Shown: piece after piece, positions 1-10,406 of the stretch
Numbering within the stretch: position 1 is the stretch's first letter
Layout: each line of letters opens with the position of its first letter
NCBI GenBank assembly: GCA_965195285.1
Contig: CBDAFS010000002.1
Coordinates: 1 to 10,406, forward strand
Origin: an uncultured Aminicenantes bacterium
Lineage (GTDB): Bacteria; Acidobacteriota; Aminicenantia; UBA2199
DNA length: 10,406 nucleotides
Direction of reading: 5' to 3'
Translations under genes and position numbers: made by a program
Notes under the pieces: model-generated
What the model was told of the DNA's origin: nothing
Databases searched by the model: none
The model's input: only the letters and a program-made list of their open reading frames with translations

Positions 1-121
1 ATGCGGAAAAAATATGGAATTTATGCCCGGATTGTGGGAAACGGATTGGATAAAAGATGATGAAACCGTGGTCTTATTCAATACCGGCAGCGGTCACAAG
101 TATTACCATTTATGGGATTAA
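1..121 (+). pseudogene. thrC: Threonine synthase remnant: N-terminal Zn-ribbon piece joined out of frame to the extreme C-terminus
   Basis: Frame 3 (3-41) reads AEKIWNLCPDCGK, like the N-terminal CxxC of this ThrC subfamily, and stops at 51-53. Frame 2 (32-121) reads LWETDWIKDDETVVLFNTGSGHKYYHLWD*, the ThrC C-terminal VVLFNTGSGxKY motif. The 5' end lies outside the window. Confidence 0.75.
80..113 (+). repeat. 34-bp direct repeat, copy 1 (within the thrC 3' end)
   Basis: AATACCGGCAGCGGTCACAAGTATTACCATTTAT, 32/34 identical to 2059-2092. Confidence 0.95.
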
Positions 122-132
122 GATCCAATTCA

Positions 133-199
133 ATATGAATGCAGCTACGTGAAGTACAAGTACGGCTTTTCGGTGTCTATCTATAGCTGCCTGTTATAT
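133..199 (-). other. Degenerate attC-like hairpin (may also terminate convergent transcripts)
   Basis: Minus strand reads ATATAAC-AGGCA-GCTATAGATAGAC..., with the methyltransferase TAA stop inside the R''-like heptamer. Inverted repeat GCAGCTA (141-147)/TAGCTGC (184-190). The distal end lacks a clean GTT. Confidence 0.45.
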
Positions 200-928
200 A
201 CTGAGTTCTCTTGTGAAATCACGACATCGCTGAATTCTTGGACTACGGCATTCATAGAAACGATACAAGGAGATCGACTTCGCCAGTCCAAATACTCTGC
301 ACACAACATCCTCGAAAAAGTACATCAATACCTCTTCAATTTCCCTTGCCGAGTTTACGTGTTCGTGCTTCATTAACAGTCCATAATCGAGCCCATACTT
401 CAGCTTGAACTCCAACCCGGTAGTCAATTTCCAACCCAGAGCCCAAAGGAATGTACCTTCGCTTGGTATGCCCGCACGGAACATACCATTCTCAGCCAAT
501 AATAATCCACTTTGGGCGACAACTTCCGGCAGGTTACAAATATGTTCCAAAGTAGCTATGGAAGTGATTCTTTCGTAGCAACAACTACTCGGTATTTCAG
601 AAATATCCGAATAGATATTTCTAATGTTTGCGAGAAGAGGTGAATCGTTGAAAAGCTCAATAAAAGGCTCAACAATGTCATACCGCCGAACATCAGGTTC
701 ATATTGCAGGTGCTTGAGAGTGCCCGCACCCAACTCCAAAGTTGCCCTTCTTGATTTCCTGAGGGTGACAATATCTTTTGCCACTTGCTTGTGTAACCAT
801 GACTCCATTCTTTGCGCAAGCGATGAAGCAGTTGTCTGTCCCTCTCGGTTTGACTTGTATTGAGCTGAATAAATTTCTTCGATCTCTTTTGGTAATGGAG
901 GACGTGTCTTGGGAAATTTCTCAAACAT
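194..928 (-). CDS. Class I SAM-dependent methyltransferase (244 aa)
   Basis: Motif I TLELGAGT, acidic motif YDIVEP, and ITSIATLEHI...LLAENG typical of Methyltransf_11/23-like proteins. Confidence 0.85.
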   Translation of the reverse strand: MFEKFPKTRPPLPKEIEEIYSAQYKSNREGQTTASSLAQRMESWLHKQVAKDIVTLRKSRRATLELGAGTLKHLQYEPDVRRYDIVEPFIELFNDSPLLANIRNIYSDISEIPSSCCYERITSIATLEHICNLPEVVAQSGLLLAENGMFRAGIPSEGTFLWALGWKLTTGLEFKLKYGLDYGLLMKHEHVNSAREIEEVLMYFFEDVVCRVFGLAKSISLYRFYECRSPRIQRCRDFTRELSI

Positions 929-948
929 TAAGGTTCCATTTGTCTAGT

Positions 949-955
949 GCATAAC
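949..955 (-). other. attC R' core-like site GTTATGC (cassette head)
   Basis: Minus strand ACGCT-GTTATGC lies 20 nt before the ATG at 928; the rest of the attC is missing. Confidence 0.45.
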
Positions 956-966
956 AGCGTAAAACA

Positions 967-991
967 GAGTCAGGTCTTTGATTTTCACATT
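967..991 (+). repeat. Possible solo copy of a GGGGTCAGGTCTTG-type extragenic repeat
   Basis: GAGTCAGGTCTTTGATTTTCACATT resembles, from memory, the GGGGTCAGGTCTTG...ACATT repeats seen next to IS200/RAYT-like transposases; only one copy here. Confidence 0.3.
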
Positions 992-1548
992 CACTTTTTT
1001 CCCAAAAGGACCGCACGGTTTCGACCTATCTTGGGACTGTTCAATACATTAAAACCATTCTGTTCGGCAATAGAAATAGTTATTTTAAAATCCTTTTCTG
1101 ACACATGCCCCTTTGGTTCTACTACAAAAAATGTTCCGATAGGTTTTATCGTTTCATATATCTGAGAAAAAAACGTGTGAGCATCAGGAACTTCGTGTAC
1201 CACAGCAGATGCAAAAGCGAAATCGATTTTTTCCTTAAGGTCATCCAGACCAAGTGAATTATGGTTACATATACGTGTTTCAATTCTATTGGCCAATCCT
1301 GCTTTCTGTGCGCGTTTTTCGAGTGATTTAATCATCTTCTCCTGTACATCCACACATATGACTTTCCCTTTCGAACCGATCATCTGTGCAAGAGGCAAAC
1401 TGAAGAAACCCATTGCACAGCCAATATCTAAAACCTTCATCCCGTCCTTCACATATGGAGCGAGTATCTTTTTGGGATTTTCAAATAATTTTCTTACCGG
1501 ACTAGCAAGAAGATAACCAACCCATACCGGACACACTCTCTCAGGCAT
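991..1548 (-). CDS. Class I SAM-dependent methyltransferase, UbiE/Methyltransf_31-like (185 aa)
   Basis: VLDIGCAMGFFS motif I, VICVDVQEKMI, DFAFASAVVHEV. Start placed at ATG 1548 (MPERVCP) after a purine-rich AGGGTGGA; the ORF track starts at GTG 1557. Confidence 0.9.
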   Translation of the reverse strand: MPERVCPVWVGYLLASPVRKLFENPKKILAPYVKDGMKVLDIGCAMGFFSLPLAQMIGSKGKVICVDVQEKMIKSLEKRAQKAGLANRIETRICNHNSLGLDDLKEKIDFAFASAVVHEVPDAHTFFSQIYETIKPIGTFFVVEPKGHVSEKDFKITISIAEQNGFNVLNSPKIGRNRAVLLGKK

Positions 1549-1639
1549 TATTTCCACCCTTTCTTTTTTTCTTTCGTGAAATGTATTTTTCTTGATTTTC
1601 AGTTATCATTGATTTCACCTTTACACTCGAAATGAACGG

Positions 1640-1668
1640 TTTCGGCCCGCTGGAGTGAATCATTATAG
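1640..1668 (-). other. Left half (R''-L'') of a degenerate attC
   Basis: Minus strand CTATAAT-GATTC-ACTCCAGCGG has the spacing of AAC-N5-(G)CTCCAGCGGAC-type attC sites and contains the upstream gene's TAA; no right arm found. Confidence 0.45.
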
Positions 1669-2043
1669 GATTTTGTCATATAGTTTTTTGCATTCGGTAC
1701 AAAACCCCTGGGAAAATTCTATCTTGGAATGTGTGTCAAAATAGGTTTCAAAAGGTACCCATTCCTGGTTATTGCTATCATATATTTTTTTACACACGCA
1801 ACATATATGAAGAAATTCCTCCAAGTATTTTATTCTTTTTAGCAATTTTTTTGTTATTAATATAACCAAAATAGCCAAAACAATAACAATAAAAGATTCC
1901 AATATACTTTCTGTAAAATTAATTGGGGTTTGAGGTGTTTTAAATAGGACGTGGGGAAGGTCGATAATTTCATCCAGCCAAATAAAAATTATCACAAATC
2001 CAAATCCTATAGTTTCACAAATAATTATTTTCTTCTTTTCCAT
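1663..2043 (-). CDS. Small membrane protein (2 TM) with a C-terminal CxxCKKI...W...FSxGxCxxC putative metal-binding domain (126 aa)
   Basis: Two hydrophobic stretches, then ICCVCKKI...W...FSQGFCTEC. GGGAGA RBS upstream of ATG 2043. The ORF-track extension to 2088 is the antisense of the thrC repeat. Confidence 0.8.
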   Translation of the reverse strand: MEKKKIIICETIGFGFVIIFIWLDEIIDLPHVLFKTPQTPINFTESILESFIVIVLAILVILITKKLLKRIKYLEEFLHICCVCKKIYDSNNQEWVPFETYFDTHSKIEFSQGFCTECKKLYDKIL

Positions 2044-2058
2044 TGTTTTTTCTCCCAT

Positions 2059-2092
2059 AATACTGGCAGCTGTCACAAGTATTACCATTTAT
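2059..2092 (+). repeat. 34-bp direct repeat, copy 2 (displaced thrC 3' fragment)
   Basis: AATACTGGCAGCTGTCACAAGTATTACCATTTAT, 2 mismatches to 80-113; translates NTGSCHKYYHL. Confidence 0.95.
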
Positions 2093-2120
2093 TATATCGA
2101 AAACCCAATTTTTTCACAAT

Positions 2121-2148
2121 CCATAACATCGGGGGTAAAAAGTTGAGC
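2121..2148 (-). other. Collapsed attC-like remnant
   Basis: Minus strand GCTCAAC (perfect RYYYAAC, about 10 nt after the stop at 2158), 14 nt, then GTTATGG; no internal stem. Confidence 0.3.
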
Positions 2149-2157
2149 GTTCGTGCA

Positions 2158-2297
2158 TTAATCAATTTCCATACTGGTATTATAGCGAATATCAATAATT
2201 TCCAAATCTAACCATGTCCAATTCCCGTTTTCAAGCACCCAGATAAATGGATTAGTCCGTGAAGTCCGATGATTATTATGAAAATTATCCTTGTCAT
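2158..2297 (-). pseudogene. DUF6544-like membrane protein remnant: N- and C-termini only, frameshifted
   Basis: AGAGG RBS, then ATG 2297 gives MTRIIFIIIIGLHGLIHL. A second frame gives IWVLENGNWTWLDLEIIDIRYNTSMEID* (TAA 2160-2158). HGLIHL and WTWLxLEIxDIxYN are the two ends of this family as I recall it. Not in the ORF track. Confidence 0.65.
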
Positions 2298-2344
2298 CTT
2301 AAACCTCTATTATTTTTGCATAAAATTCTTAATATGCAAATTTG

Positions 2345-2416
2345 ACTTAACGGAAAATTAAGCCGCCTGAAAAAGCAGTACGCTTTTTCAGGTCGGTCTC
2401 GAACAGCTTATTAGGC
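2345..2416 (-). other. Integron attC recombination site (72 bp, slightly degenerate)
   Basis: Minus strand GCCTAAT-AAGCT-GTTCGAGACCGA-CCTGAAAAAGC-GTACT-GCTTTTTCAGG-CGGCTTAAT-TTTCC-GTTAAGT. Perfect 11-bp inner stem, 5-nt spacers, GTTRRRY end, arms close to the aadA-type GTTCAAGCCGAC...GCGGCTTAA. Confidence 0.8.
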
Positions 2417-2459
2417 GAAAATTTATGTGATTATAGTTATTTATGTTGAATGTCAATGA

Positions 2460-2756
2460 TTAGAAACTACGGCCACCGCCGTATCCTCCTCCGCCTCTAC
2501 CACCGCGACTTTCGGTGCGAGGGCGAGCCTCATTCACTTTAACCGCTCTTCCTTTTAGCTCTTTGCCATTTAGGCCATCGATTGCAGCCTGTCCTTCATC
2601 TTTAGAGGCCATCTCCACGAATCCGAATCCTTTTGATTGACCACTATACTTGTCTTTTATAATAGTGGCGGATTCAACCTGCCCGAATTCTTCTACAGCC
2701 AGCCGTAAGTCCTCTTCGGTGACCTCATACGACAAATTCCCTACATAGATCTTCAT
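2460..2756 (-). CDS. RRM (RNP-1) RNA-binding protein with Gly/Arg-rich tail
   Basis: RNP2 IYVGNL, RNP1 KGFGFVEM, VNEARPR, RGG-rich tail, AAGGAG RBS. Confidence 0.97.
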   Translation of the reverse strand: MKIYVGNLSYEVTEEDLRLAVEEFGQVESATIIKDKYSGQSKGFGFVEMASKDEGQAAIDGLNGKELKGRAVKVNEARPRTESRGGRGGGGYGGGRSF

Positions 2757-2864
2757 TCAAATCTCCTTTTGTACTAAATTATAAATTTGCACATTGCATA
2801 ACTATTACTAAACACCAATATATGTTTTATAAGAAAAAAGAAAAAAATTCAATAAACAATTGAA

Positions 2865-3128
2865 TTATATTTGTAAATTGGGGAAAAATAGGCAAAATTT
2901 GTTGTTTTTGCTTTGGATGCCTGCGATACCTACTAATTTATTATCCAAAATCACATAAAACCCTGACTCGAAATTTGTAGCTGCCTGGATGAGTCGTAAT
3001 GCTTTGTCTTTCTTCTTAATCAAAACTCTCATTTTAATATAAAACGATTCATACAATAATTTTATAGCCTGACTTCTAAGGGTATTGGGTAGTAATTGAA
3101 CTATTTCTATTCTATTAGTAGATTGCAT
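2865..3128 (-). pseudogene. 3'-truncated GNAT-family acetyltransferase (N-terminal part)
   Basis: QAIKLLYESF...DNKLVGIAGIQ resembles GNAT N-terminal helices and strands; no acetyl-CoA-binding motif A (R/QxxGxG/A); ends in AT-rich sequence. Confidence 0.5.
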
Positions 3129-3215
3129 TATCTTTTATTTGTATCAAATATTTATATTTAAAACAAAATAATCTTTCGTTTATTATGGCTTTGACTTATA
3201 TATTGTTATCAGCTT

Positions 3216-3464
3216 TTATTCAATAGATTTAATAAGTTTGAATATTAAAACATCTCTGGCAGGTATTTTAACCGAATATGAGATTTTGGTGTTTCCAATG
3301 AATTTGTCTTCCCAAAGATTTATTACATTATAGGTATGGGTATTTGGAAAATCTTTTATATTGATTTTGCCCCAATTAATGGTAAAGTCTTTGTCTTTAA
3401 TTTCAAGATTTAATAAACACACTGCAACGCTTTTTTTTATACGTTTGGCCAATTGCTTGTTCAT
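3216..3464 (-). pseudogene. GH27 alpha-galactosidase remnant: first 7 residues fused in frame to the C-terminal beta-sandwich domain
   Basis: VAVCLLN...INW...YNVINLW...IPARDVLIFKL matches the Melibiase_C pattern. MNKQLAK matches the start preceding TPPMGWNSW. The catalytic barrel is absent. It starts 10 nt after a sugar-type SSS gene. Confidence 0.7.
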
Positions 3465-3474
3465 AAATCCGGGA

Positions 3475-5061
3475 TTACGAAAATAAAATGTAAATGCTTA
3501 TAACGATAATGGTGATTACTATGCTGAAAACCTTGAGGTGTTTCCAAGGAGTAATATTTACATCATGGGAAAAAACCTGTCGATAAGCTTCTTCTCTTGG
3601 GGCAATTTTTCCGATAATTAACATAACAGCCACATTAAGCACAAATAATATGGCCATGACATGCAGATAGTGCGGATAGTTATCAGATCCAAATATATAT
3701 GGTTTTAAAATAAATTGACTGATACTGTATAATATTACCCCGGACAGGATTGCAATTTTTGCCGCTATGGGCGGAACATATTTTGTAAATATCCCCACCA
3801 AAATAATGGTGAGAATAGGGATGCTGTAGCAGCCGTTCACTTCCTGCAAATAACCAAATAAACCATGGGGAGCTTTGGCAATTAAAGGCGCAATGCTCAT
3901 GGACATAATAGCCAATATAACGCCATAGAGCTTACCGGCTTTTACGGTTTTCACCTCATTGGCTTCTCTGTTGATATACGTTTTGTAAATATCCAAACTA
4001 AATAAGGTTATTGAACTGTTAACGGCTGAATTAAATGAACTTAGAATCGCCCCAAAAAGCACGGCAGCAAAAAACCCCAGCAAATATGCCGGTAATACAC
4101 TGTTTACAAGCATGGGATAGGCTTGGTCCGGATTTTCCAAAATACCGCCAAACATATGAAAAGCGATAATACCGGGCAGAACAACGATCAGCGGTCCCAA
4201 AATTTTAATGAAAGCTGCCAATAACAGCCCTTTTTGCCCTTCTTTCAGATTTTTTGCTCCCAGTGCCCGTTGAATAATCGCCTGATTGGTTCCCCAATAA
4301 AACAATTGTACCAGCATCATTCCTGTAAAAATGGTGGAAAAAGGCACCGAAGCAGTGCTGTTACCGATTATATTAAATTTTTCGGGATGTGTCTGAAACA
4401 ACACATCAATACCATTCAAAACATTACCCGAACCAATAGCCATTAAGCCGAAAACAGGAATCATGGCGCCTCCTATTAACAGGCCTACGGCATTAATTGT
4501 ATCCGAAACAGCGACCGCTTTTAGCCCTCCGGAAATGGCATAAATAGACCCGATGATGCCAATTCCCCAAACGGTAATCCACAGCGCAGTTGTTTCCGAA
4601 ACCTTAAGAAGCCCGGATACATTAAACATGGTGCTTATAGCCAGAGCGCCGGAATACAACACAATTGGCAAGAGCACAATCATATAGCCGCTTAAAAACA
4701 GGGCGGAGGTTATGGTTTTGGTTTTTTTATCATATCGATTTTCCAAAAATTGAGGAATAGTGGTGATTCCTCCCTTTAAATACTTTGGCAACAGTACGAT
4801 TGCGGTTAAAACCATAGCAATAGCAGCAAGTGTTTCCCATGCCATTACCAATATACCTTCTCTGCTGGCCGCGCCATTCAATCCAACAATTTGTTCGGTA
4901 GACAAGTTGGTAAGTAATAAAGAACCGGCTATTACAACACCCGTTAAACTTCTTCCTCCGAGAAAATACCCATCAGCGGTTTTCCCTGCTTTTTTTCTGG
5001 TTAAAATATATGTGATTATGGCAACCAATGCCGTAAATACAAAAAAGGAGATTATTTGCAT
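3475..5061 (-). CDS. Sodium:solute symporter, YidK-like (probable sugar/polyol uptake)
   Basis: GYFLGGRSL, SLLLTNLSTEQIVGLNG, FYWGTNQAIIQRALGA and many TM segments; 528 aa. Confidence 0.95.
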   Translation of the reverse strand: MQIISFFVFTALVAIITYILTRKKAGKTADGYFLGGRSLTGVVIAGSLLLTNLSTEQIVGLNGAASREGILVMAWETLAAIAMVLTAIVLLPKYLKGGITTIPQFLENRYDKKTKTITSALFLSGYMIVLLPIVLYSGALAISTMFNVSGLLKVSETTALWITVWGIGIIGSIYAISGGLKAVAVSDTINAVGLLIGGAMIPVFGLMAIGSGNVLNGIDVLFQTHPEKFNIIGNSTASVPFSTIFTGMMLVQLFYWGTNQAIIQRALGAKNLKEGQKGLLLAAFIKILGPLIVVLPGIIAFHMFGGILENPDQAYPMLVNSVLPAYLLGFFAAVLFGAILSSFNSAVNSSITLFSLDIYKTYINREANEVKTVKAGKLYGVILAIMSMSIAPLIAKAPHGLFGYLQEVNGCYSIPILTIILVGIFTKYVPPIAAKIAILSGVILYSISQFILKPYIFGSDNYPHYLHVMAILFVLNVAVMLIIGKIAPREEAYRQVFSHDVNITPWKHLKVFSIVITIIVISIYILFS

Positions 5062-5105
5062 TATAGGTTCAAATTTGGTCTAATTTTAAAAAAAGGTGTC
5101 TTTCC

Positions 5106-8221: not shown

Positions 8222-9385
8222 TTATTCCAATAACTGAGAAACAAATACTATCTTAATTCCACTGTCACGGATGGATTTTATTGAATCTCTTATAGCCTGA
8301 AAAGTTGTTTGAAAGGGGTGGCCAATCGCAATGGCTTTGCCCTTTTTTTGGGCCACTGCGATTAATTTTTGGATTTGCTTCATCGAATGTGGATAGGTTT
8401 TTTCCGAATCCAAAAAAATATCGCGGAATGCCGTTTTTATTTTCAGTTCCCTGGCCACATCATAGGCCACTGTTTCTGAAGTGGTTCGGGAATCCACAAA
8501 AAAGAGCCCTTCCTGCTTAATGATTCTTAAAAATTTTGTAATAATACCTTTTTTGGAAGTAATAAGAGATCCCTCATGATTATTAACACCTCTGGCATGG
8601 GGAATGATTTGTCTGGCTTTTAATACAATCTGTCTCATTTCATCAATATCCGAATGAATTTGAATGATGGTAAAGCCCCGGTATGAGCTGTTTTTTGAAT
8701 TCTTGGGCTGCATGGGTATGTGTATCATCGCTTGTAATCCATACTGCTTTATCTGTCTGGCTTCATCAAAAGCGAATGAGGATTCAGGTAGAATCGATGC
8801 AGTGATCGGGATATTCAGTTTTTTTAGATCCAAAGAAATACCAGATCGATTTCCGATATCATCGATTATAAAGGCTACTTTTGGCTGAAGATCTTCCGCT
8901 TTTTTTTCCGGAATTTTATCATCACTGACTTGACAAGTAATTAATATAATGTGGGTCACATCCTGATTTTTCTTGATATGATATAAGTGAATGGTCTTGT
9001 TAGTCTGCTGACGCATTTCGGAAAGTTCCAGTAAATAATTCAATCCAGAGGAAATCTTTTTTATGTCTCTGACAATATTTTTTATTTCTTCCTGATTAAC
9101 ATCCAGTTTAAAGTGGTATTTTTCCGACTGATCCAAGAAATAATTGAATTTAATGTGGTTTCGGTTGAAAAGTTTAATCAATTGCTGTTTGAATTGATTG
9201 GACTCTGATTTATCTTCCCCAGTCATTTTCAGTTTGATTATTTTTTTGAAAATAAATGAGACTTTACCATTTCTGAAATCAATATATTCCAGTACTATCA
9301 CCGTTATCAGGGCAATTAGGATAAAAACAACAAAGAGTGGTAACAATACTGATCTTTTTGATTTGGATGTTTTTCGAGTAGTCAT
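8222..9385 (-). CDS. Divergent polysaccharide deacetylase (YibQ-like) with N-terminal membrane anchor
   Basis: VAFIIDDIG, MIHIPMQP, GVNNHEGS, FFVDSRT, RDIFLD, AIAIGHP motifs; N-terminal TM segment; ATGA overlap with the upstream gene. Confidence 0.95.
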   Translation of the reverse strand: MTTRKTSKSKRSVLLPLFVVFILIALITVIVLEYIDFRNGKVSFIFKKIIKLKMTGEDKSESNQFKQQLIKLFNRNHIKFNYFLDQSEKYHFKLDVNQEEIKNIVRDIKKISSGLNYLLELSEMRQQTNKTIHLYHIKKNQDVTHIILITCQVSDDKIPEKKAEDLQPKVAFIIDDIGNRSGISLDLKKLNIPITASILPESSFAFDEARQIKQYGLQAMIHIPMQPKNSKNSSYRGFTIIQIHSDIDEMRQIVLKARQIIPHARGVNNHEGSLITSKKGIITKFLRIIKQEGLFFVDSRTTSETVAYDVARELKIKTAFRDIFLDSEKTYPHSMKQIQKLIAVAQKKGKAIAIGHPFQTTFQAIRDSIKSIRDSGIKIVFVSQLLE

Positions 9386-10406
9386 TTGTGATCTCCCAGG
9401 ATTGATATACAGGCAGAAAACAGTGCGTTATCCTCAATGGTTTTTCTCTCATACATGGGCTTCACTCCGGTTCCCAGTATCGGATTATTCATTAATTTAT
9501 AAATCCCCGTATTGAGCACTACCGAAGTTCCGTCATCGAGATAAAACTGTTTTAAGCGAGGAACAAATCCGGAAGTTTCCTCACCTATCAGGGTGGCATT
9601 GGTTAACTTCAAAATATGAGCCAACAACTCAGAGTATAAAACAGTTGATGCATTAATAATAAAAACACAATCATATCCGGGATCATTGTCGGAGCCAACC
9701 AATAAGTTTATTTTGCCATTCTTGGTTTCAATTGAAAGGAAAATATTTTCATGGACAAAAATTTTCGAAACTTCAAGGAATGATTTGAAATCTCCTCCTG
9801 AATATCTTCTTAAATCAATAATCCATTTTGAATTTTTGTACTCGGTCATTCTCGCTTTTATTTGGGCAACCGACATCGTATCCAGCCTCATCAAAGATAT
9901 GAGCTGAATATCTTGGCTGAGTTTTCTGAACTTAACAGTCCTGGATATGAATATTGGGTTTATCGTTAACGTTTGAAGATTTTCTGAATTTTTTTTCAAA
10001 CAGATTAAGGTAAACGGGATTGACTTTTCCGATATCATAGACAAAAACATGTCCCAATAAGAAAGTGCATACAAACTGTTTCCGTTTACATAGCGGATAA
10101 TATCCCCAATTTTCAAACCGGCTTTCAGGGCCGGTGAATCTGGTATAATATCCGTAATATAAAAATAATTGTTTTTTTTGATACCGTATACCCCGATACC
10201 ATAATAATTACCCTGCTGGTATAATCGAAATGTTCTACTTTTCCGTTCATCCAGATATGACGAATAATCATCAACACCTGAAACAAGGGAAGAAAATGCC
10301 CCCGGATATTTTAGTAGAGGATTTAATTCTTCCACATAATCAGTTTTTACCAGGTTCATGACCTCGGAAAATAGAAATAAATATTTATCATCACCAGGGG
10401 ATTCAG
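9382..10406 (-). CDS. PDZ + S41 C-terminal processing protease (CtpA-like) homolog, predicted inactive; 5' end outside window
   Basis: Frame is open to the window edge (ESPGDDKYLFLFSEVMNLVKTDYVEE). PDZ motifs YYGIGV and SPALKAGLKIGD, IIDLRRYSGG, GVKP. The catalytic Ser and Lys positions read Leu and Phe. Confidence 0.85.
   Translation of the reverse strand, partial: ESPGDDKYLFLFSEVMNLVKTDYVEELNPLLKYPGAFSSLVSGVDDYSSYLDERKSRTFRLYQQGNYYGIGVYGIKKNNYFYITDIIPDSPALKAGLKIGDIIRYVNGNSLYALSYWDMFLSMISEKSIPFTLICLKKNSENLQTLTINPIFISRTVKFRKLSQDIQLISLMRLDTMSVAQIKARMTEYKNSKWIIDLRRYSGGDFKSFLEVSKIFVHENIFLSIETKNGKINLLVGSDNDPGYDCVFIINASTVLYSELLAHILKLTNATLIGEETSGFVPRLKQFYLDDGTSVVLNTGIYKLMNNPILGTGVKPMYERKTIEDNALFSACISILGDHK

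Follow-up and report, generated by a model that had tools for sequence, protein, structure and literature searches.

Why should genes lying close together keep short pieces of both their ends and lose nearly everything between them? This question is raised by the first 3.5 kb of a 10,406-nt stretch of DNA (the window), which is the entire contig C2 of a metagenome-assembled genome (MAG) from an uncultured marine-sediment Aminicenantes bacterium (G000; 62 contigs, 3.28 Mb, 94.9% complete). A preliminary description of this DNA had proposed that three genes, the threonine synthase gene thrC, a DUF6544 gene and a GH27 alpha-galactosidase gene, suffered the same lesion, either by microhomology-mediated deletion with selection for retained borders and read-through or by an undescribed excision process. 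Comparing the window with three genomes of the same genus (G001, G002 and G003) and a family set of 72 genomes, we found a stretch that holds four pseudogene remnants: thrC and the DUF6544 gene are each missing about 1 kb from the middle, a GNAT acetyltransferase gene is without its 3' part, and of the GH27 gene the C-terminal domain alone is left. Ordinary microhomology-mediated decay by deletion of dispensable genes, in an accessory stretch that varies between strains of this sediment bacterium, probably explains them.

The thrC and DUF6544 remnants

The thrC remnant starts outside the window, since position 1 is a contig end, an assembly edge and not the start of a gene. Its upstream context is supplied by another contig of G000 (C56), which ends in the same 141 nt as window 1-141 and on which a GH77 4-alpha-glucanotransferase gene and then a DUF2784 gene precede thrC. 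There thrC begins 49 nt ahead of window position 1, and its ATG is overlapped by 4 nt by the DUF2784 stop. The 5' remnant comprises 30 normal N-terminal codons, including a CxxC...CPDCG zinc-ribbon-like start, and its frame hits a stop 3 codons past the join; the C-terminal ~25-29 codons follow in another frame and end at the stop at 119-121. Pfam and NCBIfam assigned no family to the resulting 39-aa piece, for which comparison with relatives was needed instead.

That comparison is provided by G003, which has an intact thrC of 395 aa (NF006050, 597 bits versus a cut-off of 303). When its product was searched by tblastn against all of G000, matches were limited to residues 1-32 (75%; C56:22985-23080) and 351-387 (73%), and at the DNA level window 1-42 and window 31-115 match the two ends of the G003 gene at 100% and 94% identity, respectively (the latter at G003:C106 3758-3842), so that both remnants derive from one thrC gene. 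The 12-mer ATTGTGGGAAAC (window 31-42) aligns at both places, to G003 2761-2772, where it is identical, and to 3758-3769 (ATTGAGGGAAAC, 11/12), and therefore 997 nt were lost in one frame-shifting direct-repeat deletion; the intact allele has the repeat (11/12 nt, 7 perfect) at each break point, and one copy is left. The alignment shows the loss of thrC to be a single event between short repeat copies, as is typical of replication slippage or microhomology-mediated end joining. The microhomology-mediated deletion proposed earlier thus fits thrC, with both break points and the repeat defined against an intact relative; the gene is hollowed as described, both ends kept and the interior gone, except that what had been taken for its beginning is the contig end.

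No threonine synthase scored above cut-off in G000: the best matches to TIGR00260 (47.1 bits; cut-off 167.1) and NF006050 (53.1; cut-off 303) both fall on another pyridoxal phosphate enzyme, on contig C40. In a MAG of this completeness, a threonine requirement is therefore likely. Many relatives also lack a thrC copy of the NF006050 type, which scores above cut-off in 10 of the 72 family genomes, and G002 keeps only a 65-nt 3' piece of thrC and has no NF006050 match, in a genome only 70% complete. The gene looks dispensable in the family.

The DUF6544 remnant was compared with DUF6544 genes collected from 12 of the 72 family genomes. Its N-terminal frame (2297-2211) holds an HGLIHL word and meets a stop at codon 30, and its C-terminal piece, in a second frame, ends with a YN word and a stop at 2158. 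These halves align with opposite ends of a single family member, a 376-aa frame of G024: window 2291-2229 corresponds to residues 12-32 (62%, E 5e-4) and window 2241-2167, in a different frame, to residues 352-376 (52%, E 6e-6), with ~319 codons (~957 nt) missing between them. A 409-aa DUF6544 frame of G015 likewise matches the remnant at both ends. As for thrC, then, searching with each half led to opposite ends of one protein, as the preliminary description had supposed. The two alignments have 13 nt in common, as a join at a microhomology would produce, although this is only suggestive. A PF20181 search of G000 at E up to 10 reported an intact, distant paralogue on contig C52 and not the remnant, which retains too little. 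Since both thrC and the DUF6544 gene are frame-shifted, both are dead.

Hollowed genes of this kind could be artefacts of metagenome assembly, created by a collapse or a chimeric mis-join and aided by the contig break at position 1. The window does begin where the contig does, its overlap with C56 is exactly 141 nt, the contig name of a related MAG shows k141, and the probable source run contains one more contig with an alternative continuation past position 141, which is why the MAG assembler broke there. However, the 141-mer common to C56 and C2 contains the thrC join itself, the branch reflects strain variation downstream of thrC and away from the join, and a k=141 graph should not be collapsible by a 12-nt repeat. 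We checked the sequence against Logan contigs, which come from an independent assembler. Those of the probable source run match window 1-141 (within a 4233-nt contig), 1414-2537 and 2508-3700 with 0 differences, so that all three junctions are crossed by independently assembled contigs. Moreover, a 7980-nt contig from a second study has window 1-141 at 0 differences, then 993 other letters; it continues with 959-1571, skips 1572-2040 with 6 filler letters in their place, has 2041-2101, skips 2102-2159, has 2160-2904 and diverges beyond. This contig carries both the thrC join and the DUF6544 remnant, each of which is thereby known from two strain backgrounds sampled in two studies. Two further runs, X16 and X2, yielded short pieces only, and nothing was drawn from their depth or uncovered parts. 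An assembly artefact is already largely refuted and is extremely improbable.

The GH27 and GNAT fragments

The third gene of the preliminary description turned out differently. Its 82 codons are uninterrupted, and the only Pfam match is to Melibiase_C (residues 11-77, E 4.9e-10); the catalytic TIM-barrel (Melibiase_2, PF16499), which the 391-aa homologues carry, was not found in the ORF (open reading frame). By BLASTP, one 391-aa GH27 protein aligns from ORF residue 3 onward with its residues 317-389 (58%), and a second from ORF residue 12 with its residues 323-389 (67%). Even at E up to 50, residues 1-30 of two relatives (P0002 and P0004) had no match in the ORF. No more than its start codon and the codon after that could be original, and on these alignments the remnant is a one-sided 5' truncation and not a hollowed gene. 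The idea of one lesion seen three times is therefore not supported. Among relatives of this gene, a 266-aa JGI protein (P0003) looks internally deleted, its signal-peptide-like N-terminus running into the region near residue 175 of the 391-aa forms.

A fourth broken gene, of the GNAT family, lies between the RNA-binding protein gene and the GH27 fragment. Pfam and NCBIfam scans gave it no family, and no C-terminal GNAT piece was detected after it. Its break near 2895-2904 coincides with the boundary near 2904 at which strains begin to differ. GNATs of 198 aa match the fragment at 82-88% identity, and one of them bears an NCBI name that comes from a Calditrichia MAG. With identity this high between phyla, the block at ~2905-5105 may be horizontally acquired. 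Two routes to an intact counterpart of the GH27 gene were tried. The closest symporter, in G024 (80% DNA identity at the 3' end), is followed by galT and other genes and not by GH27, and a metagenome scan with the 198-aa GNAT found one 68% locus with no adjoining GH27 or symporter and no syntenic locus for the GH27 break points.

If the remnants persist, might they be selected as functional mini-genes or read-through fusions, as N-terminal peptides, a stand-alone GH27 beta-sandwich or regulatory gene ends? The unbroken GH27 frame, with its ATG 10 nt past the symporter stop, the overlap of the thrC start with the DUF2784 stop, which constrains the first bases of thrC, and the identity of the thrC join in two strains would all suit such a role. 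But the halves of thrC and of the DUF6544 gene stand in different frames and yield no fusion protein, the DUF6544 remnant is wholly absent from G003, and the GH27 and GNAT fragments are absent from both G003 and the second-study strain. In addition, each of the 7 GH27 homologues found among the 71 other genomes of the family occupies an open frame of 388-424 aa. Selected mini-genes are thus highly improbable. For read-through in particular, which the preliminary description had invoked, the early stops after both joins leave no room, and the frames exclude selection for it.

Table 1. Coordinates of remnants, repeats and neighbouring genes (window positions unless a contig is named)
Feature	Position	Strand	Basis or remark
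thrC 5' remnant, codons 17-30	1..42	+	100% identical to G003:C106 2731-2772; codons 1-16 on C56
thrC deletion junction, single kept copy of the 11/12-nt direct repeat (7 nt perfect) that flanked the lost 997 nt	31..42	+	Alignment to G003
thrC 3' remnant, last ~25 codons and stop, in another frame than the 5' remnant	43..121	+	94% identity to G003:C106 3758-3842; tblastn residues 351-387
34-nt direct repeat, copy 1, within the thrC 3' end	80..113	+	94% to 2059-2092
34-nt direct repeat, copy 2, orphan	2059..2092	+	Counterpart with the same left boundary adjoins htpG in G002
DUF6544 remnant, in two different frames: ~23 codons of the N-terminus (2297-2229), ~25-28 codons of the C-terminus (2241-2158)	2158..2297	-	Crossed by contigs of two studies
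GH27 alpha-galactosidase, reduced to the C-terminal beta-sandwich domain (~residues 317-391 of 391)	3216..3464	-	Pfam and BLASTP; catalytic barrel and N-terminus gone
GNAT acetyltransferase fragment, residues 1-78 of a 198-aa protein, 3' part lost	2895..3128 (ORF 2865-3128)	-	88% identity to 198-aa GNATs
Further candidate remnants with both ends kept	C15:112804-113681, C31:108756-109331, C15:1406-2054		Found through paralogues
ORF of 244 aa, weakly methyltransferase-like	194..928	-	Methyltransf_23, E 0.02, below cut-off; window 142-958 replaced by 993 letters in the second-study contig
Class I S-adenosylmethionine-dependent methyltransferase, intact	991..1557	-	Methyltransf_31, E 8e-20; common to G003 and the second-study strain
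Small ORF, hydrophobic by eye	1663..2043	-	No family match (Pfam, NCBIfam); absent from the second-study contig and G003
RRM-type RNA-binding protein gene, intact, between remnants	2460..2756	-	RRM_1, E 1.9e-23
Sodium:solute symporter, intact	3475..5061	-	Within the ~2.2-kb block (~2905-5105) that G003 is without

Strain variability and the nature of the deletions

The remnants lie in a stretch that is both poor in coding sequence and unstable between close strains. ORFs cover 0.586 of window 1-3500, against a genome median of 0.938, which places it in the lowest 0.9% of 6180 windows, and the G+C content of contig C2 (36.8%) is low within the range of G000 contigs (33-48%). The locus is flanked by thrC on one side and by conserved CBAH-family hydrolase and htpG genes on the other. 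G003 joins window 1625 directly to 2316, so that 1626-2315 are absent, and places the upstream region of the RRM gene directly against the CBAH-family hydrolase gene, with ~2905-5105 absent. The indels that separate close strains at the locus measure 58, 469, 690, about 817 and about 2200 nt, and their end points are unrelated. The variation reaches upstream of thrC, since the DUF2784 gene (C56:22602-22988) is absent from the same place in G003 (109 nt versus 614 nt). When window 1-3700 was searched at the DNA level against 40 relatives, none showed an intact DUF6544 or GH27 gene at the locus.

Copies of the thrC 3' end also occur at the locus. A 34-nt repeat of it occurs in G000 in two copies only (plus the C56 overlap), the second lying 1.98 kb downstream of the first, and the pair brackets 1.95 kb with strain-variable genes, the methyltransferases. 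In G002, pieces of the thrC 3' end lie at C220 250-314 and 2543-2596 and enclose three genes (Big_5, an unknown one and TIR); the first of these pieces, the last 65 nt of thrC, is fused to RRM upstream sequence. Because the orphan copy in G000 and the piece beside htpG in G002 share their left boundary, the duplication predates the split of these genomes, and an old insertion into the 3' end of thrC may have left the orphan copies as its scar. An integrated element at this end was considered and rejected: no integrase was seen beside thrC in G000 or on the G002 contig (Pfam, selected ORFs) or in G001, G003 and G014 (mostly from ORF lists), and the thrC end of G000 resembles the natural ends of G001 and G014.

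These observations bear on the second proposal of the preliminary description, that an undescribed, dedicated excision process, site-specific or gene-targeted, removes gene interiors and leaves both termini. Two gene-confined deletions of near-equal size (997 and ~957 nt) lie 2.1 kb apart, and each is rare by chance: placed at random, a ~1-kb deletion falls within one ORF at 24-26% of positions and leaves at most 200 nt of that ORF in ~1%. The 34-nt repeat and the similar G002 fragments around a three-gene, TIR-containing insert further hint at local recombination. However, the junctions carry no common motif: in 75 pairwise local alignments of 13 junction neighbourhoods, none went beyond shuffled sequence, the lowest fraction being 0.01, as expected for 75 tests. 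A similar-looking stretch 3' of the thrC and DUF6544 joins was likewise dismissed as not significant (shuffle fraction 0.06). No recombinase was named by Pfam in 9 window ORFs, by NCBIfam in 5 window ORFs or in the scanned neighbours, with two ORFs at 8222-10404 inspected by eye only. Moreover, the thrC join is a plain direct-repeat deletion, the GH27 case is a different lesion, the products are frame-shifted, and the other strain indels vary in size and ends. A dedicated excision process finds no support here and is very unlikely.

Could the hollowed genes nevertheless form a recurrent class, with thrC, the DUF6544 gene and remnants elsewhere in the genome produced by one lineage-specific process of gene-sized, microhomology-mediated interior deletions at an unusually high rate? 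The scan for terminus-only genes suggested by the preliminary description did find more of them. We compared 2380 long ORFs of G000 with 914 gaps of at least 100 nt, a paralogue scan blind to single-copy genes. Of 54 internal gaps with matches, 3 hold collinear N- and C-terminal pieces with the middle missing, and many other gaps of G000 hold one-sided fragments. Two of the three represent transposase genes of the IS200-like Y1 type, with a DnaA_C helix-turn-helix also present in one paralogue, and the third belongs to a family with a weak TolB-like match. A recurrent class of this kind is improbable.

Ordinary decay by deletion remains the reading that we favor. The first 3.5 kb of the contig would then be a decaying, strain-variable accessory stretch in which the lesions other than that of thrC probably arose in the same way as that of thrC. 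A deletion confined to a dispensable gene would be harmless, so that the gene ends survive, whereas deletions running into neighbours would be purged, as might happen where the thrC start overlaps the DUF2784 stop. Such a survival filter, by which only deletions within dispensable DNA would persist, is plausible, and the stretch is rich in such DNA. Dedicated excision machinery is not needed.

Several points weigh against this reading. Two ~1% events 2.1 kb apart are not expected from random placement, and we infer that a selection filter is needed to account for them. The paralogue scan is limited to paralogous families, missed the window's own DUF6544 remnant at its threshold and gives no unbiased rate. 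No intact near-identical allele was found for the DUF6544 or GH27 gene, whose best relatives are 52-68% identical at the protein level, and a single-step origin and microhomology are presumptive for both. The 6 filler letters in one strain indel are unexplained by slippage alone, and Ku was not found in G000 (94.9% complete). Finally, the sequence check covered contigs only.

Two further observations concern the intact RRM gene. The AT-rich region upstream of it (window 2796-2878) recurs upstream of other genes, at G002:C220 2304-2373 before the TIR gene and on several G020 and G002 contigs, and may be a shared promoter or 5' leader. Just downstream of the gene, on the minus strand, an 11-nt inverted repeat followed by a T-rich run (window 2358-2400) looks by eye like an intrinsic terminator.

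Meaning and comparison with known systems

The value of these results lies mainly in a cleaned-up annotation. They also mark the stretch downstream of thrC as a hot spot of gene turnover between close strains, where this genome has methyltransferases and a sister genome a TIR gene. As a caution for annotation, a short ORF that resembles the terminus of a family may be the genuine scar of a deletion, and what looks like a gene start may be a window edge. An unbiased excess of gene-confined deletions, if true, would bear on how mutation and selection share in the removal of pseudogenes; otherwise the locus would not.

Genomic islands can be flanked by a duplicated 3' end of their target gene. 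The 34-nt repeat of the thrC 3' end in G000 and the two G002 pieces around the Big_5, unknown and TIR genes resemble this arrangement; unlike such islands, the locus has a short repeat and no integrase was seen in the stretches examined, and the interior deletions would be left unexplained. Internally deleted derivatives of insertion sequences keep both termini and lack the interior, as do the two IS200-like Y1 transposase genes among the three extra remnants of G000, whereas thrC and the DUF6544 gene are ordinary cellular genes with no terminal inverted repeats or mobility.

Closer to the thrC join is the deletion of sequence between short repeats, which is known to occur by replication slippage. 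As in this process and in alternative end joining in Escherichia coli, the join keeps one imperfect 12-nt repeat copy and the intervening sequence is lost; the 6 filler letters in one strain indel are unlike simple short-repeat deletion. Alternative end joining in E. coli was described by Chayot et al. (2010), as cited in the available text of PMC6054270, and the absence of detected Ku in G000 fits Ku-independent end-joining routes.

The nearest likeness is to the erosion of bacterial pseudogenes under a deletional bias. In the available text of the erosion studies (Kuo and Ochman, PMC2817411 and PMC2916853; Danneels et al., 2018, PMC6054270), a dispensable gene first becomes inactive and is afterwards deleted piecemeal, leaving remnants between functional genes, and deletion sites are flanked by microhomologies, which Danneels et al. 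liken to alternative end joining. As far as that text goes, those studies deal mostly with small indels in host-restricted bacteria; here, in the MAG of a free-living sediment bacterium, single deletions of ~1 kb would have taken nearly a whole gene and yet ended within it, twice in 2.3 kb.

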